From the NCBI GenBank assembly GCA_013150955.1, contig JAADJD010000005.1:31096-95095 (forward strand): DNA of 64,000 nucleotides. Direction: 5' to 3'. Position numbers and translations under genes: made by a program. Each line of letters begins with the position of its first letter. Position 1 is the first letter of the stretch. This document shows, piece by piece, positions 26,551-51,658 of this stretch. The notes under the pieces were generated by a model. It saw only the letters and a list, made by a program, of their open reading frames with translations. It ran no database searches and was not told where the DNA came from. This stretch comes from Calditrichota bacterium (GTDB lineage Bacteria > Calditrichota > Calditrichia > RBG-13-44-9 > J042).

Positions 26551-26560
26551 GCAATTGCAA

Positions 26561-26790
26561 ACTTAAACCCGGATTTTACATTCGCCTGCGAATTACAAGA
26601 ATTCACACGAACCAAAAGAATGAAATGCATTTGATGCAATCAGGATGAAAATGGGGTCCAGGGTTTGGTAGGTGGTTTGTTAATCCCAAATTATGCTTTG
26701 AACCTCAATTGACGCGAATGAACACAAATAAACCCAGATTATGCATAAGACCACGAATTGCACGAATTCACACAAATAAAATTAACCTGT
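26561..26790. repeat. Dispersed MITE-like element (two partial units)
   Basis: AAACCCGGATTTTACATTCGCCTGCGAATTACA... and ...AAACCCAGATTATGCATAAGACCACGAATTGCACGAAT. Confidence 0.65.
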
Positions 26791-27094
26791 TGTTCTAATT
26801 GGACAACCCAAACCGTTAAAACGGTTCTGTAAATTATTGTTACTTTAGGAGTTGTCCACCCAGATAAATCTGGGTGTTAATGAATGATAATTTCGATTAA
26901 CTCCTGGCTACTCCTGGCTTTAGCCAGGAGAAATAGATGAAGTAACCGATTGATTCGTGAATTCATGCATCATTTGAGTTCAAGGAAACCATCCGCTTCT
27001 TTGGTCGCTTTTCAAAAAATTCTCAACGATTTTCCCCTCAAATTTTTCTGCCAGAAAAATATTTTGTATTTTTAAACATGCCGATTAAATTTCA

Positions 27095-27110
27095 GGATCG
27101 AAATTGGCAT
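27095..27110 (+). promoter_or_regulatory. Candidate sigma-54 (-24/-12) promoter upstream of sensor kinase
   Basis: TGGCAT-N5-GTGCA has correct GG/GC spacing relative to the TGGCAC-N5-TTGCA consensus; lies about 40 bp upstream of the kinase start. Confidence 0.55.
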
Positions 27111-27148
27111 AATTTGTGCAAATCTATAAAAGAAAAACGAGGGGCCTG

Positions 27149-28669
27149 ATGGACTTTCGCCGATTGGGATTGAAATACCGTTTCATCGTTATCACCATTG
27201 CCGTGGTGGTACTGGTAACCCTGGCGGGTAGCCTGACCCTCCACGGGATATATCGCGCGGGTGGCAATGTGTACCGCCCGGAATATTTGATGGCAGTGGC
27301 CGCTTTTTATATCTTCATTGGGATCATCGGGGTGTTGCTGGTTTCCAAATACATGATCCAGCCGGTCGTGCATCTCACCCAGAAGGTGTACGAGGTGCGC
27401 AATGGGAACCTGGACATCGAGTTTTCCAACCATCAGAATCACGTGTGGATGGATGAAATGGATCAATTGTACGAGGGATTTGCCCACATGGTGCGCCATC
27501 TGCGGCAGACCATCGAAGAGTTGACCAAGGCAAAGGAACGGGCCGAAACCGTTTCCCGCGAACTTTACAAAAGTAAAAAACGCCTGGAGGCGGTATTTAA
27601 CAGCCTGTCTGACGGCATCATGATTATTGACAAGAACTTTCGGATTGTGACGGCCAATCCGGTTATCCTGAAACTGATGGGCCGCACGGAGGAAGAAATC
27701 AAAGGAAAACACTGTTTTGAGATGTGCAACGGTAGCCTGCGGCGTTGCCAGTTCTGTCGGGCGACGGATACGTTCCGCTTTGGCGAGCACGAGATTACCT
27801 ATTGCACCAAACCCGATCCATCGGGGAAGGGCGACCGCATTCTGGAAGTCCACGATTTTCCCATGTTCGATGAAAATGGCGAGATTGTGCAAATCATTGA
27901 GTATGTCAAGGATGTAACCGATGCCATGCAAATGCAGGCCAAGCTGGAAAGTTCGCGGCGGCTGGCGGAGATTGGGGAAATGGCCGCCAAAGTGGCGCAT
28001 GAGGTGCGCAATCCACTGAACGCCATCAAAGGCGCGACCCATTATTTGCGGGGGGAGATTCAGGAGGAATCGGTGGCTATGTATCTGGATTTGATCGAGG
28101 AACAGGTGGATCGAGTAAATCGGGTGGCCACGGATTTACTGGGATTGGCGCGTCCCCTGGAACCGGTTTTTCATCCGGGCAATCTGGAGAAAGTGATTCG
28201 ACAGGCCTTGTGGGATACCCAGCAGGCACTGGACGATAAGCAGATTCGGGTGAAAACGCATATCCATCCCAATATCCCCGAAATTCCCCTGGATGAAAAT
28301 CAGATTGAGCAGGCGCTGGTAAATTTAATTTTAAATGCGGTGGATGCCATGGAAGAAGGGGGGCAGTTGACCATCGAACTGAAGTCCCTTTGTGGAGGAA
28401 ACGGCATGCGGGGGGAACATTTGCAGCTGGTGATTGCCGATACCGGTTGTGGCATCCCCGCCGAAACGCGTGAACAGATTTTCCAGCCGTTTTTTACCAC
28501 CAAAATAAAGGGAACCGGTCTGGGACTTACCATTGTGAAGAAAATTGTGGAACACCATCAGGGACAAATTGAAATTGAAAGCGAGGAAAATCAGGGAACC
28601 CGGGTGATCATTCGGTTGCCGTTAAACATCCGTCACCATGAAGCCAAAATTTACAATTTTAGTAGTTGA
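27149..28669 (+). CDS. Sensor histidine kinase (2 TM, HAMP, PAS, HisKA, HATPase_c)
   Basis: H-box [11 protein letters not shown]; N, G1 and G2 boxes (DTGCGIP, GTGLGL); PAS-like region with Cys-rich motif; alternative start at 27116. Confidence 0.8.
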
Positions 28670-30038
28670 TGACGAAGAGCCCATCCTTCGGGTCATGGAA
28701 GCCAATCTGGTGCGGGAGGGTTACGAGGTAAAAACCGCCCGCGACGCGACCACAGCACTTCAGATCCTGCAACAGGATCAGGTGAGCACGGTGATTGTAG
28801 ACTACCTGATGCCGGGGATGAATGGCATTGAAATGATTCAGCGCATGAAGGAGATGCAGCTGGATGTGCCCGTCATTGTGGTCACCGCGTACGGTACGAT
28901 TGAACAGGCCGTACAGGCCATGAAGCTGGGGGCATTTAATTATCTGACCAAGCCCATCAATTACGATGAGTTGATTTCCATTGTTAAAAAGGCAGTGGAG
29001 CAGCATGCGCTGGCGCTGGAGGTGCAGCGGTTGCGACAGGAGATTACCTCGCAGTACGGATTCGATCAGATTGTGGGGCAAAATCAAAAGATGCAGGAGA
29101 TCTTCTCGCTGGTGCGGGATGTGGCAGAAACCGATGCCACGGTGCTGATCCGCGGTGAAACCGGTACCGGAAAAGAGCTCATTGCCCGGGCACTGCATTT
29201 CAATAGTCCACGGAAAAATAAACCTTTCGTGCGGGTGAATTGTCCCGCCATTGCAGAAACCTTGCTGGAGAGCGAGCTATTTGGCCACGAAAAAGGCGCG
29301 TTCACCGGGGCGATCAAGACGCGCATCGGACGCTTTGAGCAGGCCGATGGTGGCACCATATTTCTGGATGAAGTGGGCGATTTGCCCCTTCGCATCCAGT
29401 CGAAATTGTTGCGGGTGCTGCAGGAAAAGGAGTTTGAACGGGTTGGGGGCAATAAAACCATCAAGGTGGATGTGCGCATCATTTCCGCCACCAATAAGGA
29501 TCTGGAGGCAGAAGTGCAGGCCGGAAATTTTCGCCAGGATTTGTTTTACCGGCTGAATGTGGTGCCCATTGTGGTGCCGCCATTACGTGAGCGACCGGAT
29601 GACATCCCCCTGCTGGCCATGCATTTTTTGAAAAAATATGCCCGCCGATTCAACAAACCGGTTCATGAGATTTCTCCAGAAGGCATGGCGCTGCTGGTGG
29701 AACAGCCCTGGCCGGGAAATGTACGCCAGCTGGAAAATGTGATTGAACGGGCCATTATTCTGGAGAAAAGTGAACAACTACAACGGGATACCCTGCTCCG
29801 CTGCCTGGAATATAAACCCACCAATCTCTATTCCTTTCCCATCAATGCCCGTAAGCCCTTGAAAGAATTAAAAGAACAGCTGATTGAAAATTTCGAGAAG
29901 GAATACATCATCACCCTGTTGAAAGAGTTCAAGGGAAATATCAGCGCGGCTGCACGGGCATCGGGGATTCACTACAAAAATTTTTACGAGAAAATGCGCA
30001 AGTACAATATCCGCCGGGGGGATTATCAGGAGGAATGA
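28638..30038 (+). CDS. Sigma-54-dependent response regulator (NtrC family: REC, AAA+ activator, HTH)
   Basis: Receiver domain (VVDDEE...DYLMPGMNG); Walker A GETGTGKE; GAFTGA motif; C-terminal Fis-type HTH; overlaps kinase end. Confidence 0.9.
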   Translation: MKPKFTILVVDDEEPILRVMEANLVREGYEVKTARDATTALQILQQDQVSTVIVDYLMPGMNGIEMIQRMKEMQLDVPVIVVTAYGTIEQAVQAMKLGAFNYLTKPINYDELISIVKKAVEQHALALEVQRLRQEITSQYGFDQIVGQNQKMQEIFSLVRDVAETDATVLIRGETGTGKELIARALHFNSPRKNKPFVRVNCPAIAETLLESELFGHEKGAFTGAIKTRIGRFEQADGGTIFLDEVGDLPLRIQSKLLRVLQEKEFERVGGNKTIKVDVRIISATNKDLEAEVQAGNFRQDLFYRLNVVPIVVPPLRERPDDIPLLAMHFLKKYARRFNKPVHEISPEGMALLVEQPWPGNVRQLENVIERAIILEKSEQLQRDTLLRCLEYKPTNLYSFPINARKPLKELKEQLIENFEKEYIITLLKEFKGNISAAARASGIHYKNFYEKMRKYNIRRGDYQEE

Positions 30039-30120
30039 CCCCGGTCGATTTGCCCATCGGTCGAACAATGAATCTTTATCCACCAATCAGAAACTCCCTT
30101 CGCAGGGCATGCTGAGGTGT

Positions 30121-30320
30121 TTGCAATTATGCCAGATTATGCATTAGCCTACGAATTACACGAATTAACACCAATAAAAATAATAAAATGCACTGGATTC
30201 TATCTGGATGAAAATGTTTTCCATGAAAATGTTTTCCCGGATATATTCGCTATTTTATTGATTTTTTTCGAATTCATTCGCGTGATTCGTGGTTTAACGC
30301 TCTATTTGGGATTATGCCCA
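30121..30320. repeat. Dispersed MITE-like palindromic element
   Basis: CCAGATTATGCATTAGCCTACGAATTACACGAATTAACAC...TTCGCGTGATTCGTGGTTTAACGC...TTTGGGATTATGC. Confidence 0.75.
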
Positions 30321-30533
30321 CCTGCAAAGACGATGATTCTTTCCGTTCCAATTGAAGGATTTGAGCGACATTATGGTATTTAGGTTATAACGCCGGTGCC
30401 ATAATTATGGTAAAAATACCATAACTGTTGGATCGATGGAAACCCGCCTGAATGATCCGTTTTACTTGCAAATTCTATAAAATTTCAGGGGAATCCGTTT
30501 ATAGAGTGAAATATTTCACGAATGTGAAAATTC

Positions 30534-30549
30534 TGGAACGCCGTTTGCA
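30534..30549 (+). promoter_or_regulatory. Candidate sigma-54 promoter for the sulfur-oxidation (sHdr) cluster
   Basis: TGGAAC-GCCGT-TTGCA matches GG-N10-GC spacing and the TTGCA -12 element; about 25 bp upstream of ATG at 30574. Confidence 0.6.
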
Positions 30550-30573
30550 CATCACCGGGGCCAGGAGGAAAGG

Positions 30574-30807
30574 ATGAATCTGGTCGTCAGTAAAAAACTG
30601 GATTGTCGCTGGATGTACACCCCTCTGGCGGTGGTGCATCTGTATTTTGCTTTTCGGGAAATGCGTTCGGGAGAAATCATTGAATTGCTCATCAACAACG
30701 AGGAGAGTCATGCGGACGTGCAGAGCTGGAGCCGCATGACCGGAAATCCCATTCTGCAGGTGCGCGACAAACAGGAGCACCTGAGCCTATTTGTTCAAAA
30801 AAAATAA
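30574..30807 (+). CDS. TusA-like small protein lacking the canonical Cys-Pro-X-Pro motif
   Basis: Strong SD AGGAGGAAAGG; TusA-like length and C-terminal pattern (SWSRMTGNPIL) but LDCRWMYTP replaces the CPxP motif. Confidence 0.5.
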   Translation: MNLVVSKKLDCRWMYTPLAVVHLYFAFREMRSGEIIELLINNEESHADVQSWSRMTGNPILQVRDKQEHLSLFVQKK

Positions 30808-30818
30808 TGGAGGAAGCA

Positions 30819-31058
30819 ATGGCAGATATCCCAATTGCGGAAACCCTGGATTGTAGCGGCCTGCTGTGTCCCATGCCGGTCGTCAAAACCAACAAGGCCA
30901 TAAAAAATCTGAAAGTGGGGGAAGTACTGGAAATGATCGCCACCGATCCCGGATCCATTCCCGATATGGAGGCATGGGCCAAGCAAACCGGTCATGAGCT
31001 TCTGGAGGCAAAAGAAGAAGGGGGCAAGTACCGCTTTTTGATTAAGAAGACCCACTGA
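30819..31058 (+). CDS. tusA: Sulfur carrier protein TusA
   Basis: LDCSGLLCPMPVVKT motif; start at 30819 preferred because of GGAGGA SD. Confidence 0.8.
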   Translation: MADIPIAETLDCSGLLCPMPVVKTNKAIKNLKVGEVLEMIATDPGSIPDMEAWAKQTGHELLEAKEEGGKYRFLIKKTH

Positions 31059-31170
31059 TCGGGAAGGATGTGCCTCGGCAGGCAGGCCGTTTTCTGGAGA
31101 ACGCAGGTTTACAAAAAGGGAAAGTTGACGGTTCAAAAGTAACAAACCAATCAATTGAGAGGGGGCCAAA

Positions 31171-31683
31171 ATGTCGGAGAAAAACGGACGTCGTCGTTTA
31201 GCGATAATTGCCAGCAAGGGGACGCTGGACTGGGCATACCCGCCCTTTATTCTGGCCACAGCTGCAGGGGCCATGAACTGGGAGGTGGCCATTTTCTTTA
31301 CGTTTTACGGGTTGCCCCTGCTGAAGAAGAAGCTGGATGCTTCGGTCAGTCCACTGGGGAATCCCGCCATGCCCATGAAGATGCCCTTTGGGCCGCTGGA
31401 AAAAATTGATTTGCCGATTCCCAATCTGATCATGAGCAATGTGCCTGGATTCCAGCAGATGGCCACTGCATTGATGAAGAAAACCTTCAAGAAAAAAGGG
31501 GTGGCCAGCATTGAGGAATTGCGCGATATGGCCGTGGAAATGGACGTGCGGCTCATTGGCTGTCAGATGACCATGGACGTCTTTGGGTTCAAAAAGGAAG
31601 ATTTTATTGACGAGGCCGAAATTGGTGGAGCGGCCACATTTCTGGAATTTGCCGCCGACGCCAATGTTACCCTGTTTATTTGA
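31171..31683 (+). CDS. dsrE: DsrE/DsrF-family sulfurtransferase (DsrE3-like)
   Basis: DsrE fold pattern with conserved Cys in IGCQMTMD; located in the sHdr cluster. Confidence 0.7.
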   Translation: MSEKNGRRRLAIIASKGTLDWAYPPFILATAAGAMNWEVAIFFTFYGLPLLKKKLDASVSPLGNPAMPMKMPFGPLEKIDLPIPNLIMSNVPGFQQMATALMKKTFKKKGVASIEELRDMAVEMDVRLIGCQMTMDVFGFKKEDFIDEAEIGGAATFLEFAADANVTLFI

Positions 31684-31705
31684 AACAAAGCACAATGGTC
31701 AATAA

Positions 31706-32815
31706 ATGAAAGGGGCGTTTGTGGACAGGAAAAAACCATTGCGTTTAATCGATGCCGGAACCATTCCGTATCTGGAATCTCAGACTATTTATCACGCCGT
31801 GGCCCATGCCATGACCCCGGAAACGCCGGACACTGCCATCCTGGTCAGTCCCCAAACTCCGTACGTTTGCGTGGGATTCCATCAGGAGGTAGATCGTGAA
31901 GTGGATCTGGAATATTGTCAGGCGCATCAGATTCCGGTTACCCGTCGTGAGGTAGGCGGTGGGGCGGTGCTTCTGGATGCCAATCAAATTTTTACTCAAT
32001 GGGTGTTTCAGCCCGATCATGTTCCCCTGAAAGTGGTGGATCGGTTTCGGTTGCATGCGGAACCCATCATGGCCACTTATCGGGATTTTGGGGTGGAAGC
32101 CAATTTCCGGCCCATTAATGACATTCACGTAAGCGGGAAAAAGATTGGGGGCATGGGGGCAGCAGCCATTGGCAATGCAGAGGTCGTGGTCAGCTCGCTG
32201 ATGCTGGATTTCGATACCCGGACCATGGCCCGGGTGTTGAAAGTACCCAACGAGAAGTTCCGGGATAAGGTCTTTCAGGGACTGGAAAACTACATGACCA
32301 CCCTGAAAAAAGAGCTGGGGCAGATGCCGGATCGGGACGAAGTGAAACAACACTACGTCCGGCATCTGGAAGAGGTTTTGCAGCGGCCGGTCGAGTGGGG
32401 TGAGTTGACTCCTGGCGAAAAGGAGGTCATGGCCCAGTTAAATGCCCGCTTTGCCACCCGGGAATGGTTGTACCAGAAAGGTGGGCTGGTTCGAGGCGCC
32501 GTGAAGATCCACAGCGGTGTATGGGTGGGGGAAACGGCTTACAAGGCACCCGGTGGCCTGATTCGCATCACGCTCCGCATCCGGGAAAATACCATCGATG
32601 ACCTGGCCATTTCCGGGGACTTCACGTTTTATCCGCAACATCAGCTGGCGGCCTTCGAGGCCTTTTTGAAGGGCCATTCTCTGGAACCCGCCACCCTGCG
32701 GCGTACCATCGAGGCATTCTACCAGGAAACGGGCGTGCAAACACCGGGCATCGAAGTTGACCACTGGCTGACGGTTTTTGGTCAGCTGGCGGATGCGGTG
32801 GCAAAACACAGTTGA
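31706..32815 (+). CDS. lplA: Lipoate-protein ligase A-like (LplA/LipB/BirA family) for LbpA maturation
   Basis: GKKIGGMGAAAIG matches the lipoyl-AMP-binding Lys motif region of LplA; 369 aa; possible alternative GTG start at 31724. Confidence 0.75.
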   Translation: MKGAFVDRKKPLRLIDAGTIPYLESQTIYHAVAHAMTPETPDTAILVSPQTPYVCVGFHQEVDREVDLEYCQAHQIPVTRREVGGGAVLLDANQIFTQWVFQPDHVPLKVVDRFRLHAEPIMATYRDFGVEANFRPINDIHVSGKKIGGMGAAAIGNAEVVVSSLMLDFDTRTMARVLKVPNEKFRDKVFQGLENYMTTLKKELGQMPDRDEVKQHYVRHLEEVLQRPVEWGELTPGEKEVMAQLNARFATREWLYQKGGLVRGAVKIHSGVWVGETAYKAPGGLIRITLRIRENTIDDLAISGDFTFYPQHQLAAFEAFLKGHSLEPATLRRTIEAFYQETGVQTPGIEVDHWLTVFGQLADAVAKHS

Positions 32816-33074
32816 GTCCGTGAATGCATGGGAGAACAAAATACTGGGACTCCGAGAACTCAGCGAGATGTACCTGCAGGAAGCCGGAAAGTGGGTGTTG
32901 CTGGAAATTCTGGAAACCGATGCGCGCGGTCAGGCCAGTCGGGTCCGGGTGGTGAAATTGAGTCCCCGTAAGGATGATTTGCTGGACTACATGATGGAAC
33001 ACGACGAAGACTGGGATTGGCACAAACAATTCGTTATCGTCCACGCCGATCCCAAACTCTGTACGTTGCTGTAA
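32778..33074 (+). CDS. Small hypothetical protein; start uncertain
   Basis: ORF only; overlaps lplA end; no clear SD; retained because such small ORFs are conserved in sHdr loci. Confidence 0.3.
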   Translation: MVSWRMRWQNTVESVNAWENKILGLRELSEMYLQEAGKWVLLEILETDARGQASRVRVVKLSPRKDDLLDYMMEHDEDWDWHKQFVIVHADPKLCTLL

Positions 33075-33153
33075 AACAAAGCACCAGGGCAATCGGCCAA
33101 TTCATTAGATGGCAGATGAGGACAATCGATTGGAATTAAAATAAGCGAGGGAA

Positions 33154-33540
33154 ATGGATATGGAAGATCTGGAAGGCAAAAAGATTCTGGTAATTCAAAC
33201 CCACGGAGTGGATACGCCCACGCGGACGTATTCGCCGGTGTATTATGCCATTGCCGCGGCAGCCATGGAGATGGATGTGATGATCTGGTTTACCATGAAC
33301 GGTACCAATCAGTTGCGGAAAGGCGAGGCGGAAAAAATCGAATTGAAACCCGGCAGCGGGGTAACCCTGAAGACCTTGCTGGATCAGGCCCTGGACGCCG
33401 GGGTGAAATTATCCGTGTGCCAGCAAAGCATGGATCTGTGGGACATGAAGCCCGAAGACCTGATCGATGGGGTAAAGATCCTGGGAGCCACCAGCATCAT
33501 CGATCTGGCCCTGGAGGCCGATCACGTGATGTATTTCTAA
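33154..33540 (+). CDS. DsrE/DsrF-family protein (second copy, DsrE2-like)
   Basis: 128 aa; DsrE-like fold pattern with Cys in SVCQQSMD. Confidence 0.65.
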   Translation: MDMEDLEGKKILVIQTHGVDTPTRTYSPVYYAIAAAAMEMDVMIWFTMNGTNQLRKGEAEKIELKPGSGVTLKTLLDQALDAGVKLSVCQQSMDLWDMKPEDLIDGVKILGATSIIDLALEADHVMYF

Positions 33541-33685
33541 ATCAAAAAATTGGCACATTTGAGATTCAAATGAAGATGGGAAAACCGGGGAAATTAGAAA
33601 AGATTTCTTTGAGCTGGCCGGGAAGCCATAGCCGGGAATGTAAGCGATTGAGCACAATTTGAAAATTAAGTGAAGGAGTGCTGCT

Positions 33686-34144
33686 ATGTCAGACGTTGGG
33701 GAAGTTCGTGGATGCAGGATACCGAAGGACCTGTACTATTCGGTGGACGACCATACCTGGGTTCGCCTGAATGAGGATGGCACCGTCACCGTGGGTATGA
33801 CCGATGTGGCCCAGAATCTGGCCGGGCCGGTGCTGCATGCCAAGGTGAAGAAGGTGGGGTTGACCCGTGCCCGGGGAAAACCCATCGGCACCGTGGAAAG
33901 TGCCAAGTGGGTGGGGCCTATCAAAACACCGGTATCTGGAGAAATTGTGGAGGTGAACGAGAAATTGGCGGAAGACCCTCAATTGCTGAATCGCGATCCC
34001 TATGGTGAAGGCTGGGTGGTCAAAATGAAACCCACCAACTGGGACGAGGAGGTGAAGGACCTGGTCACCGGAGAAGAAGCGGTGGAAAAGTATCGGGAAA
34101 AGGTTGAACGGGAAGATATTAAAGCGTGTGACCATATCGAATAG
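33686..34144 (+). CDS. lbpA: Lipoate-binding protein LbpA (GcvH-like)
   Basis: GcvH-like with lipoyl-lysine motif VESAKW; GAAGGAG SD. Confidence 0.8.
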   Translation: MSDVGEVRGCRIPKDLYYSVDDHTWVRLNEDGTVTVGMTDVAQNLAGPVLHAKVKKVGLTRARGKPIGTVESAKWVGPIKTPVSGEIVEVNEKLAEDPQLLNRDPYGEGWVVKMKPTNWDEEVKDLVTGEEAVEKYREKVEREDIKACDHIE

Positions 34145-34312
34145 CGACGGTGAATGTTGCTGGATGCGGGTTGTGTGTACAACGTGACGGGGACGGGCAG
34201 AAAAAGGGTTGAGGACATGACATGCGTCAGGGCAAAGGGAATCCGCACCTGTTGACAGGGCAGGATTCTTTGCCCAAATCCATTGCAACGATGTAGCGTA
34301 AGGAGAGGGCTC

Positions 34313-35041
34313 ATGAATTTTGACATCAATTCAACGCCACTGGATTTAACCGGGGAAAAATACAGGGATGTTCCTTACGAGGAAAAGGAACGCTTGTTTA
34401 ACGAGATCAAAGCCGATGTCCGTTTTCACGATGTGCTGTATGGGTGTTATGAATGCGGGGTGTGTGTGGCGGCCTGTCCATCCGCCCGGTTCTACGACTT
34501 CAGTCCACGGGTCATTGCCCAGGCTGTGGCGCGGGAGGATGTGGAGCTGGTCTACACCCTGATGAACGATAGCATCTGGGACTGTTCGCAATGCTTTTCC
34601 TGCGATCGCTGTCCGCGGGGGAATTCGCCTGGTGGACTGATTACCCTGATGCGCGAGGTGGCGGTCAAAAACGGTCTGGAAACCGCCAAGGAAGCGCTGG
34701 AAGGCTACGGTCGCATTATTTACAAGATTATGTCCACGGGAACTCAGGTATCGCCCGATATGCTCCAGCCCAATGCCTTTCCGGACTGGGGACACCATGT
34801 GAATGAAATTGCGGAAAATCTGGATCTCTGGCGTCGTGCCCTGCCACCGGAAACCCTGCACACCGTGGAAACCGGCTGGAGTGTGAGCGAAAAAACCATC
34901 ATCGAACTTTACCTGATCTGGCACATGACCGGCGTAATGGACATGATCAAAGAAATCGATGAAGGCCTGTTCATGATTTTACAGGACGTAATGGAAGAAC
35001 GCCTGGAGGATGCCGGTTACGATGTTTTGTTCGATGAATAA
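34313..35041 (+). CDS. hdrC: Heterodisulfide reductase-like subunit C (sHdrC1), two 4Fe-4S clusters
   Basis: CYECGVCVAACP and CSQCFSCDRCP ferredoxin motifs; start at 34313 (AAGGAGA SD) rather than 34283. Confidence 0.85.
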   Translation: MNFDINSTPLDLTGEKYRDVPYEEKERLFNEIKADVRFHDVLYGCYECGVCVAACPSARFYDFSPRVIAQAVAREDVELVYTLMNDSIWDCSQCFSCDRCPRGNSPGGLITLMREVAVKNGLETAKEALEGYGRIIYKIMSTGTQVSPDMLQPNAFPDWGHHVNEIAENLDLWRRALPPETLHTVETGWSVSEKTIIELYLIWHMTGVMDMIKEIDEGLFMILQDVMEERLEDAGYDVLFDE

Positions 35042-35089
35042 AGGCGGTTGGACGCCAATCCACAGTCGAACTAAGTAAGGAGAACCATT

Positions 35090-36295
35090 ATGGGACAGCA
35101 AGTTATCCCGGTGGAAGAACTGATTAAATCCAAGAAAAAACCCGGTTTTAAATACACCCCCGAGGAAGCCCCCACGGAGGATTATCGAGACATCCTGTTT
35201 CAGCTGGAAAAAGAAGGCGAGCTGGAGGTCATTCGGGTTCCCGAGCCGTACGTGGAGGTAACCACCAAGTATGGTCGCAAAAAGAAAATTCCCCTGGAGC
35301 ATACCTGGCATCATAAGAGTTGCGGTCAGTGTGGGCACATTCCGGGATATTCCACATCGATTTTCTGGTTGAACCGCCAGTTTGGATTCGACTATGTGGA
35401 TCCCAGCGACCAGACCTCCTGTACAGCCTGGAACTACTACGCTTCGGCGACATCGAATGCGGAAGCCCAGGCGGCCGTGGCGGTTCGCAATTTTGCTGCA
35501 GCAGCGGAAACCGGCCGCTTCCCTCTGATCCACTGTGGTACCAGCTTCGGGCACTATAAAGAAGTGCGCCACGAACTGCTTCACCATCATGATCTGCGCC
35601 GCAAGGTGCGTGAGATTATGGAACGTCTGGGCAAAAAACTGGTCTTCCCGGAAGAAATTGTACATTACAGTGAGTGGGTTTATGCCATTCGCGATAAAAT
35701 TGCCGAGCGCCAGGTGATCGACATGAAACACATCGTGGCCTCGGTTCATCCCGCCTGTCATTATCACAAACTGGTGGAAGAGGATGCCATTTACGATCCC
35801 GAAATTTACGGGGCTCAGCGAACGGCCGTCGTGACCGGCACGCTAAAAGCCCTGGGAATCCAGATCGGGGAATATTCCAGCTGGTACGATTGCTGCGGAT
35901 TCGGATTCCGCCATATTCTGGTGTCGCGGGACTTTTCTCGTTCCTTTGCAGTGCAGCGGAAAATCGAAGTCATGAAGGAAGAAGCCAACCCCGATGTTGT
36001 CGTTACCCACGACACGGGATGCGTCACCACCCTGGATCAAAGCCAGTTTGCCGGAAAGGCACATGGCAAGAAGGTGGGCATCCCGGTCATGTCCGATTCC
36101 CAGATTGCTGCGCTGGCCATGGGGGCGCATCCCTACAAAGTGTTGCAGCTACACTGGCACAACACCGAAAACCGGCCGTTCCTGGAAAAACTGGGCATTG
36201 ACCCCGATGAAAAGTGGCGGGAATTCGAGGAAGCCCTGGAAAAATTGAAACGTGGTGAAAAACAATACTTAACCTGGGAGGATGCAGATGCCTAA
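35090..36295 (+). CDS. hdrB: Heterodisulfide reductase-like subunit B (sHdrB1), CCG domains
   Basis: Two Cys-rich CCG-type domains (CTAWNYY..., SWYDCCGFGF). Confidence 0.85.
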   Translation: MGQQVIPVEELIKSKKKPGFKYTPEEAPTEDYRDILFQLEKEGELEVIRVPEPYVEVTTKYGRKKKIPLEHTWHHKSCGQCGHIPGYSTSIFWLNRQFGFDYVDPSDQTSCTAWNYYASATSNAEAQAAVAVRNFAAAAETGRFPLIHCGTSFGHYKEVRHELLHHHDLRRKVREIMERLGKKLVFPEEIVHYSEWVYAIRDKIAERQVIDMKHIVASVHPACHYHKLVEEDAIYDPEIYGAQRTAVVTGTLKALGIQIGEYSSWYDCCGFGFRHILVSRDFSRSFAVQRKIEVMKEEANPDVVVTHDTGCVTTLDQSQFAGKAHGKKVGIPVMSDSQIAALAMGAHPYKVLQLHWHNTENRPFLEKLGIDPDEKWREFEEALEKLKRGEKQYLTWEDADA

Positions 36296-37352
36296 TCAAG
36301 ACATTCTCGTGATTGGAGGAGGCCCCGCAGGTCTGGAGGCCGCTCGTTCGATTGGAGACCTGGGATACAAAGCCATTTTAATCGAAAAACGGGATCGTCT
36401 GGGAGGTACACCGGACGAAGCCAGTTATGCCGCCTTAACCCCGGACCTTCGCAGTGCTGAGGAAGCCATGAACGCCATGATCCAGGCGGTGGAGAATAAT
36501 CCCAATGTAGACGTTCGACTGGGTACAACGGTGGTGGCTGCGGAGGGCAGTGTGGGAGACTTTAAAGTGACCATTCAAAATGGAAAGGGAAAAGAAACCC
36601 TGAACGTGGGAGCGGTGATCATTGCCACCGGCTTTCAACATTTCGATCCCGGTCGGGAAACCCAAAAATACGGGTACTATGAATATGAAGACGTCATTAC
36701 GCTGGTGGATTGCGAAAAGATGCTTAAAGCCCACCGTTTTGTGCGCCCTTCTGATGGGAAAAAGCCGGAGCGAGTATGCTTCATTCAGTGCGTGGGTTCC
36801 CGCGATCGCCGCATCGGGAATGAGTACTGTTCAAAAGTGTGTTGTGGAATCGCTTCCAAGGAGGCCATTGAAATTCGCCAGCTGGTGCCCGATTGCAAGG
36901 TGTTCATTTTTTACATCGACATGCGTATGTACGCATACTGGGAACCCGATCTGTACTGGAAGGCGCAGGAAGAACACAAGGTGAACTACGTTAAAGGCAT
37001 TGCCACGGAAATCGTCAAAAAAGGGGACAAATTGCTGGTGAAGGGAGAAGACACAACCCTGCGGCGTCCGTTTGAGATTCCCATGGACATTGTGATTCTC
37101 TCTGTGGGAATGGAGCCCAGTCAGGGAACCCGCGAAATGGCAAAGATCTTCGGGCTGAAGCAGAATAAATATCAGTTCATCGAGGCAGTCGGTGCCCCCA
37201 TGGACACGGTGAGCACGTCGGTGCCCGGTGTGTTTGCAGCTGGTGCCTGTACGGGGCCTGCGGATTTAGAGGATTCCATCTCCGCTGCCGGTCTGGCGGC
37301 CATGCGCGCCATTAAGGCCGTGCGGGAAAACGGTACCAAAAAAGCCAGCTAA
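36288..37352 (+). CDS. hdrA: Heterodisulfide reductase-like subunit A (sHdrA): FAD plus 4Fe-4S flavoprotein
   Basis: VIGGGPAGLEAA dinucleotide fold; Cys cluster CFIQCVGSRD...EYCSKVCCG. Confidence 0.85.
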   Translation: MPNQDILVIGGGPAGLEAARSIGDLGYKAILIEKRDRLGGTPDEASYAALTPDLRSAEEAMNAMIQAVENNPNVDVRLGTTVVAAEGSVGDFKVTIQNGKGKETLNVGAVIIATGFQHFDPGRETQKYGYYEYEDVITLVDCEKMLKAHRFVRPSDGKKPERVCFIQCVGSRDRRIGNEYCSKVCCGIASKEAIEIRQLVPDCKVFIFYIDMRMYAYWEPDLYWKAQEEHKVNYVKGIATEIVKKGDKLLVKGEDTTLRRPFEIPMDIVILSVGMEPSQGTREMAKIFGLKQNKYQFIEAVGAPMDTVSTSVPGVFAAGACTGPADLEDSISAAGLAAMRAIKAVRENGTKKAS

Positions 37353-37363
37353 AAGGAAAGCCA

Positions 37364-38110
37364 ATGGCGCTGTTCATCGACAAACAATCTACCAAGGAAT
37401 TTATGCTGGAGACGCTTTCCCGGATTACCCTGGAAGAACTGGAGCAAATCCAGGCAGACCTGCATTTGAAGAGTCAATGCGTGCAGGAAATGGTTCGGCA
37501 GGCATCGGGAGGGCGTTTTTCCGATGGCACCTTGCGGCAGCTGTTGCGGTGCGTATTTGCAACCCGGCGGCGCGCCAATAAAATTGCGGACCGGTACCCG
37601 GCGGACTATTTTGCCAGACACATCCAGAGCTTGCTGGATCCAGGCAAACCGGTGGAATGGCGTTTTCAGGAATTCTTTCACGCCTTCCCGGACATTGAGG
37701 CCAGCCAGCGCTATGATCTGGCCAGCGAGATCCTCTTTTTTTCCCATCCCGATCAATACTGGATGTGGACCCGCTGGATGTGGGATCCCCGCACCCGAAC
37801 CGGTTCGCTGCCCCTGGTGCTAATGGAACAGGTTTCCCTGGAAGGCAACTCCGAGGGAGAAATTTACCGGAAGGTGGGAGAAGCCGTCCGTCACCTTCAG
37901 GAAATCGGGCGGACGCGCGAAATCCCTTCCTTTCTGCAAACCGCGTATGGGGTGTACACCTATCTGGCCTGTGTTTATGTGATTTACAGTTACACCGTGC
38001 TGCGAATGCGCATGACACAGGAGTTCAACAAGGTGATGCCGAAATTACCCGAATTTATTCGAAGGCTGCTTGGCATTTATAGATTGGAGGAATTGAAACA
38101 TGCCAGTTGA
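37364..38110 (+). CDS. Conserved hypothetical protein of sHdr loci ('hyp' between hdrA and hdrC2)
   Basis: Position and size (248 aa) match the hdrC1B1A-hyp-hdrC2B2 arrangement; no cofactor motifs. Confidence 0.65.
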   Translation: MALFIDKQSTKEFMLETLSRITLEELEQIQADLHLKSQCVQEMVRQASGGRFSDGTLRQLLRCVFATRRRANKIADRYPADYFARHIQSLLDPGKPVEWRFQEFFHAFPDIEASQRYDLASEILFFSHPDQYWMWTRWMWDPRTRTGSLPLVLMEQVSLEGNSEGEIYRKVGEAVRHLQEIGRTREIPSFLQTAYGVYTYLACVYVIYSYTVLRMRMTQEFNKVMPKLPEFIRRLLGIYRLEELKHAS

Positions 38111-39362
38111 TCCCAAACAAATTCGCGCCAAAGACAAAGTGGTTGTCGATGGCATTGAGCTGACCAGCGAATGGAACCGCATGTTCGATCAGCGTCCGGT
38201 TTTTGATTATGACGTGGATGTTCTGGATAAAATCGCCAGCATTCCCGGAGCCGAGTCCATTGCCTGGTGTTATCAGTGTGCCCAGTGTGTGCCTGTGTGT
38301 CCGGTAAATGAGGTCGGGGATTACGGCCCGCGGAAGATTTACCGGCGATTGCAATTTGGAATCGATCTGCTTACGGATGATGAATTGTGGAAGTGCACCA
38401 CCTGCATGAATTGTTTGCGGGTATGCCCGAAGGATGTGAATATGATTGACATCATGCCGGCCGTCCGCGAAGAGGCCGTGATGGAAGGCCACGTGCCGGC
38501 CGAACTGCAAGAAGTGTTCGAAAACACGTTTGAATATGGCAATCCCCTGGGTGAATCGCCCCGCAAGCGGGCGGATTGGGTGAAGGACGCCGGCGTGCCG
38601 GTGCCAATCATGAAGGAGAAAAAAGAGGCGGATATTTTGTGGTTCGTGGAGTGTTACCCATCCTATCATCCCCGTGGGAAAGAAACCAGTGTAGCACTGG
38701 CCAAAGTATTGAATGCGCTGGGAGTCGATTTTGCCATTCTGGGGGTTGAGGAAAAGTGCAGCTGCGACTCGCAGCGACTGGCAGGCGAGCGGGGATTGTT
38801 CGAAGAATTTGCCGAAGAAAACATCAAAACTTTCAGCAAATACAAATTTAACAGGATTCTGGTGACCGATCCGCATGCGCTAAATGCCTTTAAAACGGAA
38901 TACCCCAAACTGGGCGGAGAATACGATGTGGTGCATTACACCACCTTTCTGGCACCAATGATGGATCGGCTGGAATTGAAGAACCGGTTGAATTATAAAG
39001 TGACCTTTCATGATCCCTGCTACCTGGGACGCCATCACGGGGAATTTGATGCACCGCGGCAGATCATTAATAGCCTGCCGGGAGTGGAGCTGGTGGAGAT
39101 GTGGCGTTGCCGGCAGAATAGCTTCTGCTGCGGAGGCGGGGGCGGTGGCATGTGGCTGGATGGCTTCATGGCCGATCACGTCAAGGAACGGCTTTCGGAA
39201 AATCGGGTTCGCGAAGCTGTGGAGACCGGTGCCGAGGTGCTGGTGGTGTGCTGTCCCTACGAAATTTCCCGGTTCGAAGATGCGGTCAAATCTACCGGCA
39301 ATGAGGGCAAACTGATCGTCAAGGATATCATTGAACTGGTGGTGGAGGCGATGGGCGTGTAG
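38100..39362 (+). CDS. Fused sHdrC2-sHdrB2 (N-terminal 2x[4Fe-4S], C-terminal CCG domains)
   Basis: CYQCAQCVPVCP and CTTCMNCLRVCP followed by CCG motifs (CSCDSQ, CYLGRHHG, CRQNSFCCGGGGG). Confidence 0.85.
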   Translation: MPVDPKQIRAKDKVVVDGIELTSEWNRMFDQRPVFDYDVDVLDKIASIPGAESIAWCYQCAQCVPVCPVNEVGDYGPRKIYRRLQFGIDLLTDDELWKCTTCMNCLRVCPKDVNMIDIMPAVREEAVMEGHVPAELQEVFENTFEYGNPLGESPRKRADWVKDAGVPVPIMKEKKEADILWFVECYPSYHPRGKETSVALAKVLNALGVDFAILGVEEKCSCDSQRLAGERGLFEEFAEENIKTFSKYKFNRILVTDPHALNAFKTEYPKLGGEYDVVHYTTFLAPMMDRLELKNRLNYKVTFHDPCYLGRHHGEFDAPRQIINSLPGVELVEMWRCRQNSFCCGGGGGGMWLDGFMADHVKERLSENRVREAVETGAEVLVVCCPYEISRFEDAVKSTGNEGKLIVKDIIELVVEAMGV

Positions 39363-39553
39363 CCGCCGGGGGTATCCGGAACCCGTGGTGAAGGACAACG
39401 AAGAAAGATCTCACGGTGCCGGAAACACGGGGGCAGGAAGACGGGGATCCCGCGGTTTCTGGCGATACGACGGGCGATTGGGTTGATCGGTAAGAAGATG
39501 AAAAATTAAAAATAAATCACAGCGTGAACGTTTAAGCGGCAAGGAGGTGTGGT

Positions 39554-40318
39554 ATGAACATCATTGTGCCACTTCGGCAGGTACCGGATCTGGTAGAAGA
39601 CCTGGAGATCGATGCTTCCGGGAAGGATCTGGATCGTGAATGGTTAAAATACAAAATCAATGAATTCGATGACCATGCGCTGGAAGAAGCATTGCTTTTG
39701 AAGGAAGACGTGGGCGGAACGGTTACCGCAATGGCTCTGGATGGGGATGATGTGGACAAGCTGTTATTTACGGCGGCTGCTAAAGGGGCGGATAAACTGA
39801 TTAAGGTGACCGGCGATTTTCCCCAACCGCTTTCCAGCCATGCCATTGCCAGAGCCCTGGCCAGTGCCATTCAGGGAATGGATTATCAGCTCATCCTCAT
39901 CGGCGTGCAGGCCGTGGATGAGCTGGACGGCCAGGTGGGGGTGTTGCTGGCCCATTATCTGGGTGTTCCCCACGTATCGGTGGTGACCGGGGTTCAGGTA
40001 ACCAATGGAAAGGCGGTGGTGCATAAGGAATATGCCGGTGGTGTGATGGGCGAGTTTGAGGTCACCTTACCGGCGGTGCTGGGGATTCAGGCGGCACGCC
40101 AGACCCCGCGATATGCACCGGTCAGCCGGGTGCGCATGGCCATGCGGAAATCGACCATTGAGGAGGTGAGCGCCAGCGATACCGCAGCGGGTGGGACGCC
40201 GGAAATTCGGAAACTATTCAAACCCGAAAAAGGTGCCGGCGCGCAGATGCTGGACGGTTCACCCGAAGAAGTGGCCGAAAAAATTGTGAGCATATTAAAA
40301 GAGAAGGGGATTGTGTAA
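39554..40318 (+). CDS. etfB: Electron transfer flavoprotein beta subunit
   Basis: EtfB family N-terminus (MNIIVPLRQVPD) and length; AAGGAGG SD. Confidence 0.9.
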   Translation: MNIIVPLRQVPDLVEDLEIDASGKDLDREWLKYKINEFDDHALEEALLLKEDVGGTVTAMALDGDDVDKLLFTAAAKGADKLIKVTGDFPQPLSSHAIARALASAIQGMDYQLILIGVQAVDELDGQVGVLLAHYLGVPHVSVVTGVQVTNGKAVVHKEYAGGVMGEFEVTLPAVLGIQAARQTPRYAPVSRVRMAMRKSTIEEVSASDTAAGGTPEIRKLFKPEKGAGAQMLDGSPEEVAEKIVSILKEKGIV

Positions 40319-41280
40319 TGAGCGACGTTCTGGTTTTTGCCGAACATTTACAGGGAAATTTTACGGATTCCACGTTTGAGTTGTTGGGAAAAGGCCGGGA
40401 ACTGGCCGCTGCCACCGGTGACCATCTGGTCGCCGCGCTGTTGGGTAACGGGGTCGATGACATGGTTCATCAGCTGGGTGCGGCTGATAAGGTGGTGGCA
40501 GTGGAGCACGATCAACTGGCGGAATTCAATCCCGAAGCCCATACCCTGGCTCTGAAAGCCGTGGTGCAGGCCGTAAATCCCGCCATCATTTTAATCCCTT
40601 ATACCTCCATGGGAATGGATCTGGCCTCTGCCCTGTCTGCCGATCTGGACATCCCGCTGGCATCTTATGTTGCGGATGTTCGGGTGGAGGATGGAAAACT
40701 GGTTACCGTGAGCCAGATGTATGGCGGTAAAGTGAATGTGGAATCGGAAATTGCGGGAAATCAGAAGATCGTGTCCGTACTGGCAGGCGCTTTCCCCGCC
40801 GATGCCGGTAAAAAAGAGGGCAGTCCGGCCGTGGAAAAACTGGATCCCCCTGCCGAGCTGAGCAATTTGCGGGTATCGTTTAAACAGCTGATTGAACCGG
40901 AGGGCGGGGATGTGGACATCACCCAGCAGGACGTGCTGGTGAGCATTGGACGTGGGATTCAGAGCGAGGAAAACATTCCCATGGTCGAGGAACTGGCACA
41001 AAAGCTGGGTGGTGCCGTGTCAGCCTCTCGTCCCATTATTGACAATAAATGGCTACCCAAGAGTCGCCAGGTGGGCAAATCCGGCCTGAAGGTGAAACCC
41101 AAATTATACCTGGCCCTGGGAATTTCGGGAGCACCGGAGCATATCGAAGGAATGAAGGATGCAGAGTTGATCATCGCCATCAATTCCGATCCCAACGCCC
41201 CCATTTTTGAATACGCCCATTACGGGGTGGTGGGCGACCTGTTCGATATTGTGCCGGTGCTGAAGGAGAAACTGGGGTAG
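40318..41280 (+). CDS. etfA: Electron transfer flavoprotein alpha subunit
   Basis: EtfA FAD-binding C-terminal domain (LYLALGISGAPEHIEGM); start overlaps etfB stop. Confidence 0.9.
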   Translation: MSDVLVFAEHLQGNFTDSTFELLGKGRELAAATGDHLVAALLGNGVDDMVHQLGAADKVVAVEHDQLAEFNPEAHTLALKAVVQAVNPAIILIPYTSMGMDLASALSADLDIPLASYVADVRVEDGKLVTVSQMYGGKVNVESEIAGNQKIVSVLAGAFPADAGKKEGSPAVEKLDPPAELSNLRVSFKQLIEPEGGDVDITQQDVLVSIGRGIQSEENIPMVEELAQKLGGAVSASRPIIDNKWLPKSRQVGKSGLKVKPKLYLALGISGAPEHIEGMKDAELIIAINSDPNAPIFEYAHYGVVGDLFDIVPVLKEKLG

Positions 41281-41514
41281 GCAAAAACCATCCTCCCCAC
41301 CATCGCAACCCGAATCCGGGGTGTCCGTCCATGGTGTCGGGATGGCGGGTTACCATCCGGTATCCCGACCTTTCCCGGCAGAACAGGAGGGGAACCCATT
41401 CGGGGCAACAGGCTGGCAAGAAACGTTGTCCTGCCAGCAGGGAAATCATAAGCCATGCTGAGGAATGGTCATCCACAATACCATTGACGGGTCATTTAAA
41501 TTGGAGGAGCGCCC

Positions 41515-47470: not shown

Positions 47471-48615
47471 ATACCGCTCCTGATTAATGTGAGCATATTT
47501 CGATTAACCTGGTATTGATGGTCGATTACCTCCGTTAAGAAAAACGCGCCGCCCCTGGGCCTGAGAGAGGTTTCCAGAATGTCCTGCTTAAAATACAAAA
47601 AGGTGCTCAGCCCCTGCGGGGACAAATCGTCGATCCAGGCACTGGCCAGTTGTACCAGCGTGGCCAGGGTATACCCGGTGTAAAAAGAGCAGCTCAGGAT
47701 AGGGCGAATGCCCCGTTGTTGTACCCGTTTGATGAGCTGGTAGGTGGTGCTGAGTTCCCCAAAAAACTCCGGTTTAAAAACGATCGCCTGCACACCGGGC
47801 AACAGCATTTTTTCCACATCCCGGGCCTCCCCGATGGATTCATCCAGGGCCACCGGGATACCAGTTGCCTCGTAAAATTGGGGGACCATCCGGGGATCTC
47901 TCAGGGGTTCTTCGATGTACTCGATGTTCAACGGGGCCACGGCTTTTCCGAAGGCAATGGCCGCCTCCAGCTCCCAGCGGCGATTGGCATCCAGCCGCAG
48001 CTGAATCTGATCCCCCAGCGCCGATCGAATGTCCTCCAGCAGGCGAATTTCCTGTCGGAACGGTTTTCGGCCAACCTTGATTTTAATTGCCGGATATCCT
48101 TCTTCCCGGAACGTCATGCAGCGAAAAACCGCCTGTTCATTCAGATCGTTCAACAGGGCGTTTGTCGGTATCCGCAGGTGGGGTTTTCCGTTCCAGATGT
48201 GCGACAGCGGTGTGTCGTGTTGCTGGCACAACAGGTGGAGAAATGCCTGATCCAGTGCAAATCGAATGAGAGGCGAAACGGGCACTTTCCATTTCCAGTG
48301 AATGGGAAACATATCGCTGGTGCGCTGGAAAAGGTTGATATCCCCGCTGTGGATCATCTGCAGCGTCAGCAAAAGCTCCAGGCGAATCTGATAGCCAATC
48401 TGGGGATGAAAGCCAGGCAGATAGGAGACTTCTCCCAGCCCCCGTCGACCCTCGGCATCCTCCAGTTCAATAAAAAATCCATGACGAACTCGCATCCGTT
48501 TAACCGAATATTGCAATTGCCGCAGCAAAGGCAGTCGATACGCATATAGCCGCACGTGTTGAATGGTGGAGCGAGCGATAAACGCCTGTGATCGTGTTGA
48601 ATGGGACGATGGCAT
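47467..48615 (-). CDS. menC: o-succinylbenzoate synthase (enolase superfamily)
   Basis: MR/MLE-family metal-binding region (IKIKVGRK..., DANRRW, IEYIEEPL); operon context. Confidence 0.7.
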   Translation of the reverse strand: MPSSHSTRSQAFIARSTIQHVRLYAYRLPLLRQLQYSVKRMRVRHGFFIELEDAEGRRGLGEVSYLPGFHPQIGYQIRLELLLTLQMIHSGDINLFQRTSDMFPIHWKWKVPVSPLIRFALDQAFLHLLCQQHDTPLSHIWNGKPHLRIPTNALLNDLNEQAVFRCMTFREEGYPAIKIKVGRKPFRQEIRLLEDIRSALGDQIQLRLDANRRWELEAAIAFGKAVAPLNIEYIEEPLRDPRMVPQFYEATGIPVALDESIGEARDVEKMLLPGVQAIVFKPEFFGELSTTYQLIKRVQQRGIRPILSCSFYTGYTLATLVQLASAWIDDLSPQGLSTFLYFKQDILETSLRPRGGAFFLTEVIDHQYQVNRNMLTLIRSGI

Positions 48616-49818: not shown

Positions 49819-49935
49819 CGGTCTTCCTGGATCGATTCAAACATACCTCCCGGGGGCTTTCACCACCCGGGAGGATAATTTATCATTCAAAAAGGAATTA
49901 CCCAACAGGTAGCGGTAGATTTTTTCTTTATCGCA

Positions 49936-50757: not shown

Positions 50758-50797
50758 GTGTTCCTCCTATGATTGCTTATGTGTTTGTTGTATGATT

Positions 50798-51643: not shown

Positions 51644-51658
51644 GCTTATTCCGTGTTT

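Follow-up and report, generated by a model that had tools for sequence, protein, structure and literature searches.

A candidate two-component, sigma-54-dependent switch for a type II sHdr-LbpA sulfur-oxidation operon in Calditrichaeota

We analyzed a 64-kb window of Calditrichota contig JAADJD010000005.1 (the window is the whole 64,000-nucleotide stretch, to which all coordinates refer), in which the genes for a sensor histidine kinase and an NtrC-class response regulator lie upstream of an sHdr-LbpA sulfur-oxidation operon. The segment holding this pair probably works as a two-component, sigma-54-dependent ON switch for the operon, and we hold with good confidence that the operon is controlled by sigma-54 together with an enhancer-binding protein (EBP). 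Such control of sulfur oxidation had been proposed from a reading of the sequence alone (the sequence-only reading). It is now strongly supported by a promoter element found in all nine genomes in which the pair is linked to sHdr, by a conserved upstream activating sequence (UAS) footprint, and by retention of the regulator's recognition helix. The evidence consists of domain architectures and motifs, of how these motifs rank in comparison with background, and of how far they are conserved and occur together with the pair in nine genomes; from it we infer where transcription starts, that it depends on sigma-54, that the regulator binds the enhancer, and what kind of signal is sensed. The features that carry the argument are as follows.

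27149-28669, plus strand: sensor histidine kinase of 506 amino acids, with PAS, HisKA, and HATPase_c domains (Pfam), two transmembrane helices, and a HAMP domain
27713-27757, plus strand: cysteine motif C189-x3-C193-x6-C200-x2-C203 in the PAS domain, with a fifth cysteine, C219, at 27803-27805
28638-30038, plus strand: NtrC-class response regulator and EBP of 466 amino acids, with a receiver domain (D55), a AAA+ sigma-54 interaction domain, and HTH_8
30366-30425, no strand assigned: putative UAS (enhancer) block, a conserved island holding half-sites and a palindrome
30371-30378: UAS half-site TTATGGTA
30396-30403: UAS half-site TGCCATAA
30405-30424: perfect 20-bp palindrome TTATGGTA-aaaa-TACCATAA
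30534-30549, plus strand: putative sigma-54 promoter of the sHdr operon, TGGAACGCCGTTTGCA, with GG at 30535-30536 and GC at 30547-30548; transcription start predicted near 30559
30563-30568, plus strand: ribosome-binding site AGGAGG, between the sHdr promoter and the ATG at 30574
30574-43599, plus strand: type II sHdr-LbpA sulfur-oxidation operon, assigned from Pfam and NCBIfam matches and gene order

The operon begins with genes for a TusA-like protein, tusA, dsrE, an lplA-like ligase, dsrE, and lbpA (GcvH-like), followed by shdrC1, shdrB1, shdrA, shdrH, shdrB3 (a fused C2B2), etfB, etfA, and emo (HdrD-like); shdrH, which has no Pfam match, is assigned by position only. Type II systems have been defined by the syntenic arrangement shdrC1B1AHB3-etfAB-emo (PMC11094781), and by gene order the cluster in the window is of the type II sHdr-LbpA kind. 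Upstream of the kinase and regulator genes lies gap-pgk-tpi, and no ArsR-type gene was found with Pfam between 26.5 and 44 kb of the window.

Both members of the pair that the sequence-only reading had placed here, a kinase with a Cys-rich PAS domain and a GAFTGA-containing regulator, are present according to Pfam and motif inspection. By its domain content, the regulator is an NtrC-class EBP: a receiver domain with the Asp, a AAA+ domain with Walker A and GAFTGA motifs, and a C-terminal Fis-type helix-turn-helix. The Pfam matches are Sigma54_activat (E = 9.4e-77), Response_reg (6.2e-30), and HTH_8 (1.3e-11), together with AAA_lid_14, and D55, Walker A (GETGTGKE), and GAFTGA (nucleotides 29295-29312) are all intact. 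Its gene overlaps the stop of the kinase gene by 32 nt, and it is the only GAFTGA protein in the window, with no second EBP there. The closest structure in the PDB is Aquifex NtrC4 (4l4u, 1.7e-105), and NtrC1 is also among the nearest. Both proteins fall below every NCBIfam equivalog cutoff (NtrC/AtoC/ZraR/GlrR for the regulator, AtoS/ZraS/NtrB for the kinase), the nearest families being AtoC and AtoS. The regulator scores 500 against a cutoff of 714 for AtoC (E = 4.5e-150), 468 against 559 for ntrC (3.6e-140), and 420 against 760 for ZraR, and the kinase scores 297 bits against 646 for AtoS and 127 against 240 for NR(II). Looking up the exact sequence of the regulator returned no record, and the kinase is 100% identical to a protein of a Calditrichaeota metagenome-assembled genome (MAG). 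At the N terminus of the kinase, the two hydrophobic helices are only ~15 residues apart (the outer loop), and the HAMP domain was seen through precomputed domain matches on orthologues.

Comparison loci came from two kinds of search. Scans of genomes and metagenomes with the kinase as the query gave three close relatives, L001 (83% kinase identity) and L080 and L081 (92 to 94%); the other matches were mostly generic kinases of at most 39% identity, and only these three were useful. A protein search added full-length kinase orthologues at 44 to 64% identity in Calditrichaeota and KSB1, for eight of which the gene context was fetched (L160 to L167, of which L160 is a short contig and L163 a KSB1 locus); L168 and L169 are Nitrospirota loci. 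The regulator is 91% identical to its L001 orthologue, and GAFTGA is present in 10 of 10 Calditrichaeota and KSB1 orthologues, with GSFTGA in the Nitrospirota homologue L168. The pair lies upstream of tusA-dsrE-lplA-dsrE-lbpA-hdr in L001, L081, L161, L162, and L164 to L167, down to 46% kinase identity. Between the regulator gene and tusA, zero to four genes are inserted overall (one to four in L162, L164, L165, and L167).

The element proposed at 30534-30549, TGGAAC-N5-TTGCA, lies at exactly that position. Its GG and GC have the canonical 10-nt spacing, and it has one mismatch to the consensus; the G of the GC is 27 nt before the A of the ATG at 30574, and the end of the motif is 24 nt before that ATG. 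To rank candidate sites, we scored both strands of the window (128,000 positions) with a sigma-54 position weight matrix (PWM). At 16.2 to 16.4 bits, the sHdr element is the best match of all 128,000 positions. Three of the six best matches are intragenic, and the three that are intergenic and correctly oriented are those at 30534, 27105, and 57498 (minus strand). As a null distribution, we took the best PWM score 10 to 100 nt upstream of 168 gene starts drawn from the window and from eight related loci (median, -0.2; 90th percentile, 7.9). The sHdr element ranks first of these 168 regions with a score of 16.4, and the tusA-upstream elements within 100 nt of the start codon fall in the top 10%.

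All nine genomes in which the pair is linked to sHdr have a TGG-N9-TTGC element upstream of the first tusA; it takes the form TGGTAY-N5-TTGC in L161, L162, L164, L165, L166, and L167.

Window: TGGAACgccgtTTGCA
L081: TGGAACggcgtTTGCA
L001: TGGAACaaagtTTGCA
L161: TGGTATaaagtTTGCG
L162: TGGTATaggaaTTGCG
L164: TGGTACaaagtTTGCG
L165: TGGTATagagtTTGCT
L166: TGGTACaccatTTGCA
L167: TGGTATattttTTGCC

In L081 and L001, TGGAAC and TTGCA are identical to those of the window, and the N5 spacer and the flanks vary. Relative to L001, all 11 informative promoter positions are kept and the flanks are ~50% identical. When the 535-nt spacer between the regulator gene and the operon was aligned across the window, L081, and L001, the first ~300 nt could not be aligned and only two conserved islands emerged: a block of ~60 nt at 30366-30425, and TTCTGGAAC-N3-GTTTGCA together with the ribosome-binding site.

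The first of these islands is the putative enhancer. Its 20-bp palindrome is unique in the window, where the next-best match has three mismatches. From the center of CCATAATTATGG to the GC of the -12 element the distance is 142.5 nt in the window versus 141.5 nt in L001, with diverged sequence in between. A UAS ~142 nt upstream would fit the 80 to 200 nt expected of an enhancer, and we predict that the adjacent regulator binds the block at 30366-30425. The core GGTA-N4-TRCC, always with an AT-rich spacer, recurs exactly in the tusA-upstream spacers of L161 (-190), L162 (-303), L164 (-164), L166 (two copies, -153 and -133), and L167 (-456), and it is one mismatch off in those of L001 and L165. 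Across the same loci, there are seven exact copies in the ~3.8 kb of tusA-upstream spacers versus eight in the remaining ~171 kb. Nine of the 10 Calditrichaeota and KSB1 orthologues, among them the Calditrichaeota ones that share the UAS core, retain the recognition helix HYKNFxxKM; the helix differs in the KSB1 protein of L163 (DYKNF) and in the Nitrospirota protein of L168. In no locus did the stretch from UAS to promoter contain a strict consensus for integration host factor (WATCAW-N4-TTR).

The kinase would sense its signal in the cytoplasm. In its PAS domain, the positions of C189, C193, and C203 hold a cysteine in all 120 homologues retrieved, among which is a Nitrospirota group of 41 to 45% identity, and the position of C200 does so in 119 of them; C219 is a cysteine in 55 of 57 Calditrichaeota and KSB1 sequences versus 1 of 63 of the Nitrospirota type. 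An AlphaFold2 model of residues 138 to 266 (predicted local distance difference test score, pLDDT, 89.5) has a canonical PAS fold that places the cysteines in the helical stretch (52-74) joining strand 2 to strand 3. Foldseek matched this model to cofactor-binding PAS folds, namely LOV (flavin mononucleotide), NifL (flavin adenine dinucleotide), DosP (haem), and WalK. By sequence, no solved PAS domain other than that of NreB (9WEX) aligns across the cysteines; this is a weak match (E = 0.002) in which C189 and C193 align with Cys63 and Cys66 of NreB and the spacing of the remaining cysteines differs. Foldseek did not return 9WEX from a structure library (entries to 8 April 2026) that predates it. 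It is plausible that the PAS domain reads a cytoplasmic sulfur or redox signal through a metal cluster or a thiol.

Every Cys4-PAS homologue whose neighborhood was examined (12 clusters, including Nitrospirota) adjoins a sigma-54 activator. In the Nitrospirota loci L168 and L169, the Cys4-PAS kinase and the sigma-54 activator lie amid other kinases and an HD-GYP-type regulator, and no sHdr was seen there; the module of Cys4-PAS kinase and EBP is therefore broader than its association with sHdr. Speculatively, and as an idea we think unlikely to hold as a whole, the Cys4-PAS kinases could form an uncharacterized family of cytoplasmic Fe-S or persulfide sensors (at least 120 clusters in Calditrichaeota, KSB1, and Nitrospirota). 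In Calditrichaeota they would then be the first activator-type two-component regulators of sHdr, coupling sigma-54-dependent induction of type II sHdr to a sulfane-sulfur, sulfide, or redox signal inside the cell, with the atypical TusA-like protein described below as a possible relay.

Put together, the switch would operate as follows. A membrane-anchored kinase with almost no periplasmic loop would read a signal from the cytoplasm by means of its PAS domain, in which four cysteines are invariant, and would phosphorylate the NtrC-class activator (receiver, AAA+, and helix-turn-helix domains). The activator would bind the TTATGGTA/TACCATAA inverted-repeat cluster at 30366-30425 and, from ~140 nt upstream, open the sigma-54 closed complex at 30534-30549 through ATP hydrolysis and its GAFTGA loop. 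Transcription would then run from the tusA-like gene to emo (30574-43599).

A second candidate element lies before the kinase gene itself, with a T-rich block upstream of it.

27062-27075, plus strand: T-rich block TTTTGTATTTTTAA, 30 nt upstream of the kinase-proximal -24 element
27105-27120, plus strand: candidate sigma-54 element TGGCATAATTTGTGCA, with GG at 27106-27107 and GC at 27118-27119; transcription start predicted near 27130

The sequence-only reading had placed this motif, TGGCAT-N5-GTGCA, at 27095-27110; the motif is real and lies 10 nt farther downstream. It has the 10-nt GG/GC spacing and two mismatches to the consensus. The G of its GC is 31 nt before the A of the kinase ATG at 27149, which is preceded by the ribosome-binding site GAGGGG, and the end of the motif is 28 nt before that ATG. 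The motif scores 12.7 bits, ranking 5th or 6th in the window and 4th of the 168 gene-upstream regions. L080 retains it as TGGCATaatttATGCA and L001 as TGGCACaatttCTGCA; in L001 it is the top PWM match of the locus (14.9 bits). The KSB1 locus L163 has a weaker sigma-54-like site upstream of its kinase gene. Across the window, L080, and L001, the T-rich block (TTTTGYATTTTTAA) varies at a single Y position only, and the sequence farther upstream cannot be aligned; the block does not match the regulator UAS and was not flagged by the sigma-70 consensus scan. It may serve as a bending site or represent a weak -35 region for sigma-70 or a degenerate half-site.

Whether the kinase-proximal element drives the pair bears on the first of three alternatives, in which only the sHdr promoter is functional, the kinase-proximal motif is a chance or nonproductive match in a conserved leader of the sigma-70 type, and the pair is constitutive. 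We regard this as an even call. The motif is absent upstream of the kinase gene in L160 to L162 and L164 to L167 (7 of the 10 other regions examined), and no GGTA-N4-TRCC with at most one mismatch occurs in 26551-27149 or its L001 equivalent. The whole ~110 nt before the kinase ATG is conserved, the 5-nt spacer AATTT included, which makes conservation of the motif less specific; 14 of its 16 positions are identical to L001 versus about 60 to 68% in the flanks, which lends autoregulation only modest support. A conserved TTGYAT...TAATTT-like arrangement lies just upstream of the motif, and sigma-54 binds many nonproductive sites, according to one report (PMC4591121). Against a chance match stand the motif's rank and its L001 score, its correct geometry relative to the ribosome-binding site and ATG, and the fact that across the three genomes the GG, the GC, the T before the GC, and the spacing are fixed, only the low-information -15 position varying (G, A, or C). 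In addition, scans of the kinase-upstream spacer for sigma-70 promoters and terminators gave nothing above the shuffled expectation. An origin of the motif as a reverse-complement remnant of a repeat resembling repetitive extragenic palindromes (REP-like; see below) was also considered and rejected, since L080 and L001 keep the motif and lack that repeat family. Positive autoregulation of the kinase-regulator operon, as the sequence-only reading had it, is thus possible, with the balance leaning against it. It is weakly supported, since the motif occurs only in the two closest relatives, is absent from seven other orthologous loci, and has no cognate enhancer. The element may represent a lineage-specific sigma-54 input to expression of the pair.

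The other two alternatives concern the sHdr promoter. That this promoter is real and is activated by an EBP encoded elsewhere, the adjacent pair controlling other genes, we consider improbable. It would fit L160 and L163, where the pair is not adjacent to sHdr so that the pairing is not obligatory, the second EBP nearby in L163, and the genes that separate the regulator from tusA in four loci; against it stand the synteny of pair and sHdr in nine genomes across a wide range of kinase identity, the persistence of the UAS core alongside a conserved recognition helix in linked genomes, and the regulator's being the sole GAFTGA protein in the window. Far less probable still is that both -24/-12 matches arose by chance and that transcripts of the operon start at sigma-70 promoters or arise as read-through of the regulator gene. 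Matches to the plain consensus TGGCAC-N5-TTGCW with at most two mismatches do occur in the window at the chance rate (34 observed versus 38 expected, no enrichment), for which reason we dropped consensus counting as a test of chance and replaced it with PWM rank, the gene-upstream null, and conservation. No intrinsic terminator was detected after the regulator gene, as read-through would have it. A chance origin is countered by the first rank of the site at 30534, by its presence at the same place in all nine linked genomes with an invariant core and a variable spacer, and by its position next to a GAFTGA activator, a class with no known role besides activating sigma-54. A scan of the spacer against shuffled expectation found no sigma-70 consensus near the tusA start codon, and the sigma-70-like matches in the sHdr spacer are no more numerous than in shuffled sequence and lie within REP-like repeats far from that codon. 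The two-component switch acting through sigma-54 remains the reading we prefer, and several further points weigh against it. All comparators are MAG or metagenome contigs. The PWM is our approximation of the published consensus, and the UAS motif is our own construct, defined after the window had been viewed and then tried in independent loci. The distance from UAS to promoter ranges from 125 to 456 nt among the distant loci. In L165, a leader of ~260 to 275 nt separates the promoter from tusA; a missed gene there was rejected because the 275 nt hold no open reading frame (ORF), which leaves a long leader. Finally, no ORF with an RpoN box, and hence no rpoN, was found within the 64-kb window; we infer its presence in the genome from the intact and conserved GAFTGA activator.

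Several observations adjoin the regulatory region. One further palindrome lies in the sHdr spacer.

30506-30519, no strand assigned: perfect 14-bp palindrome GTGAAATATTTCAC (GTGA-N6-TCAC), abutting the -24 element

It has one change in L081, is partly kept in L001, and was not seen in the more distant loci. It is reminiscent of CRP/FNR-type sites and is a possible operator for a second regulator. The window also holds a dispersed, REP-like intergenic repeat of ~48 to 80 nt with the core ACGAATTRCACGAATTMACAC, present in 17 to 19 copies in 64 kb versus 0 expected. Copies lie at 26564-26776 (three), 30126-30189 (plus strand), and 30252-30315 (inverted) and at 3507, 14458, 14512, 17209, 22669, 43670, 44265, 44872, 45502, 56730, 56891, 58941, 59145, and 62172. 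No related locus has the repeat, not even those of relatives whose proteins are 92 to 94% identical, and it therefore reflects a very recent expansion in the genome of the window. These ~48-nt repeats were considered as sites for the regulator and rejected, given 17 to 19 copies of the core in unrelated spacers across the window and none in the relatives.

Additional sigma-54-like sites were seen elsewhere. At 57498-57513 (minus strand), an intergenic, correctly oriented site, TGGGACTCGATTTGCT (13.9 bits), without an obvious UAS precedes a ~140-amino-acid ORF that has no Pfam match and a likely start ATG at ~57468. The sigma-54 site TGGCACACATCTGGCT at 7550-7565 of L167, which scores highest in that locus, precedes a 507-amino-acid hypothetical gene between the regulator gene and tusA. 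As for other gene neighborhoods, in L163 (11233-17016) genes for a multihaem cytochrome, SulP, and a second EBP come after the pair in place of sHdr, and in L162 (3569-6040) an ArsR-type (HTH_5) gene, a rhodanese-lactamase, and SulP lie 2 to 5 kb upstream of the kinase gene.

Within the operon, the product of the first gene (30574-30807) is TusA-like without the canonical CPxP active-site cysteine (LDCRWMYTP, not LDCSGLLCPMP). The atypical copy is also the first gene in L161, L162, L164, and L167, and because it is kept there, a noncatalytic and possibly signaling role is suggested. The last sHdr gene encodes an electron-transfer flavoprotein (ETF):(methyl)menaquinone oxidoreductase, and menaquinone-biosynthesis genes (45998-56477, minus strand) adjoin the cluster: an AMP-binding MenE-like protein, MenC, a UbiA-type prenyltransferase, a MenD-like thiamine pyrophosphate enzyme, a chorismate-binding MenF-like protein, and a UbiE methyltransferase. 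Directly 3' of the last sHdr gene, 43600-45800 is a tandem array of ~3.5 units of ~610 nt, each with a REP-like element, short repeats of the AATCCGAAATCC type, and several GC-rich hairpins. Small ORFs in the array (43962, 44546, and 45127) have no Pfam match, and Rfam gave no RNA family for the array or for any other part of the window.

The architecture of two-component system, enhancer, and sigma-54 promoter is textbook; the sHdr target and the sensor are new. In the papers retrieved, sHdr regulation is described for type I clusters only, with the ArsR-type repressors sHdrR and SoxR of one alphaproteobacterium (PMC11582611, PMC12423496), and for type II systems "less is known," in the words of one of these papers. 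In a full-text literature search, no paper connected sHdr with sigma-54 or with a two-component system, and none was returned on rpoN in Caldithrix. The value of the present analysis lies in annotation and in generating hypotheses, not in a new concept. It offers a first concrete regulatory model for type II sHdr, with a defined promoter, a 20-bp operator, and a sensor domain; the operator could be used to find the remaining regulon, and the invariant cysteines point to a signal based on a metal cluster or a thiol.

Among known systems, precedents for sigma-54-controlled sulfur oxidation are TspS/TspR for sox-II (PMC6335251) and FisR for sqr/pdo (PMC7315123). TspS/TspR of Acidithiobacillus caldus likewise comprises a kinase and an NtrC-class activator immediately upstream of the sulfur-oxidation operon that they control, with a palindromic UAS, a sigma-54 promoter, and positive regulation. 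Its target, however, is periplasmic Sox and not the cytoplasmic type II sHdr-LbpA system, and it occurs in Acidithiobacillia, whereas the system described here is from Calditrichaeota. The TspR UAS, TGTCCCAAATGGGACA, differs from TTATGGTA-N4-TACCATAA and has no match in the window at up to three mismatches. TspS is proposed to sense periplasmic thiosulfate, whereas the kinase described here has almost no periplasmic loop and carries a cytoplasmic Cys4-PAS domain. FisR (Cupriavidus, Acinetobacter; PMC7315123) is also an EBP that activates a sigma-54 promoter of sulfide and sulfane-sulfur oxidation genes and is sulfide inducible. It is, however, a one-component EBP with its own sensory domain and targets SQR/PDO; here a separate kinase would act on an EBP with a receiver domain, and the target would be sHdr.

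In Hyphomicrobium denitrificans, sHdrR and SoxR are likewise encoded next to the cluster and regulate shdr-lbpA by sulfur availability through Cys-based sensing. They are one-component (PMC12423496, PMC11582611), ArsR-type, sulfane-sulfur-responsive repressors of a type I sHdr system with ordinary promoters, in contrast to the two-component activator and sigma-54 promoter proposed for the type II cluster in the window. The PAS domain of Bacillus licheniformis NreB (9WEX) binds a [2Fe-2S] cluster through Cys63, Cys66, and Cys78 and senses sulfide (PMC13478379). NreB resembles the kinase in being a cytoplasmic PAS kinase that controls sulfur-oxidation genes, with cysteines between strand 2 and the following helices. 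The cysteine spacing is nevertheless C-x2-C-x11-C in NreB and C-x3-C-x6-C-x2-C (plus C219) here, within the weak similarity already noted, and NreB is a HisKA_3-type kinase paired with the NarL-type NreC, without sigma-54, in contrast to the HisKA kinase and sigma-54 activator of the window. AtoS/AtoC and NtrB/NtrC of Escherichia coli and NtrC1/NtrC4 of Aquifex aeolicus share the overall domain architecture and give the best sequence matches, and they differ in sensor domain, DNA site, and target genes, with scores far below the equivalog cutoffs. The phylum Calditrichaeota is uncultured and abundant in marine sediments. With the switch proposed here, the small group of sulfur-oxidation systems under sigma-54 control (TspSR, TcsSR, FisR) would gain a member in a new pathway and in this phylum.

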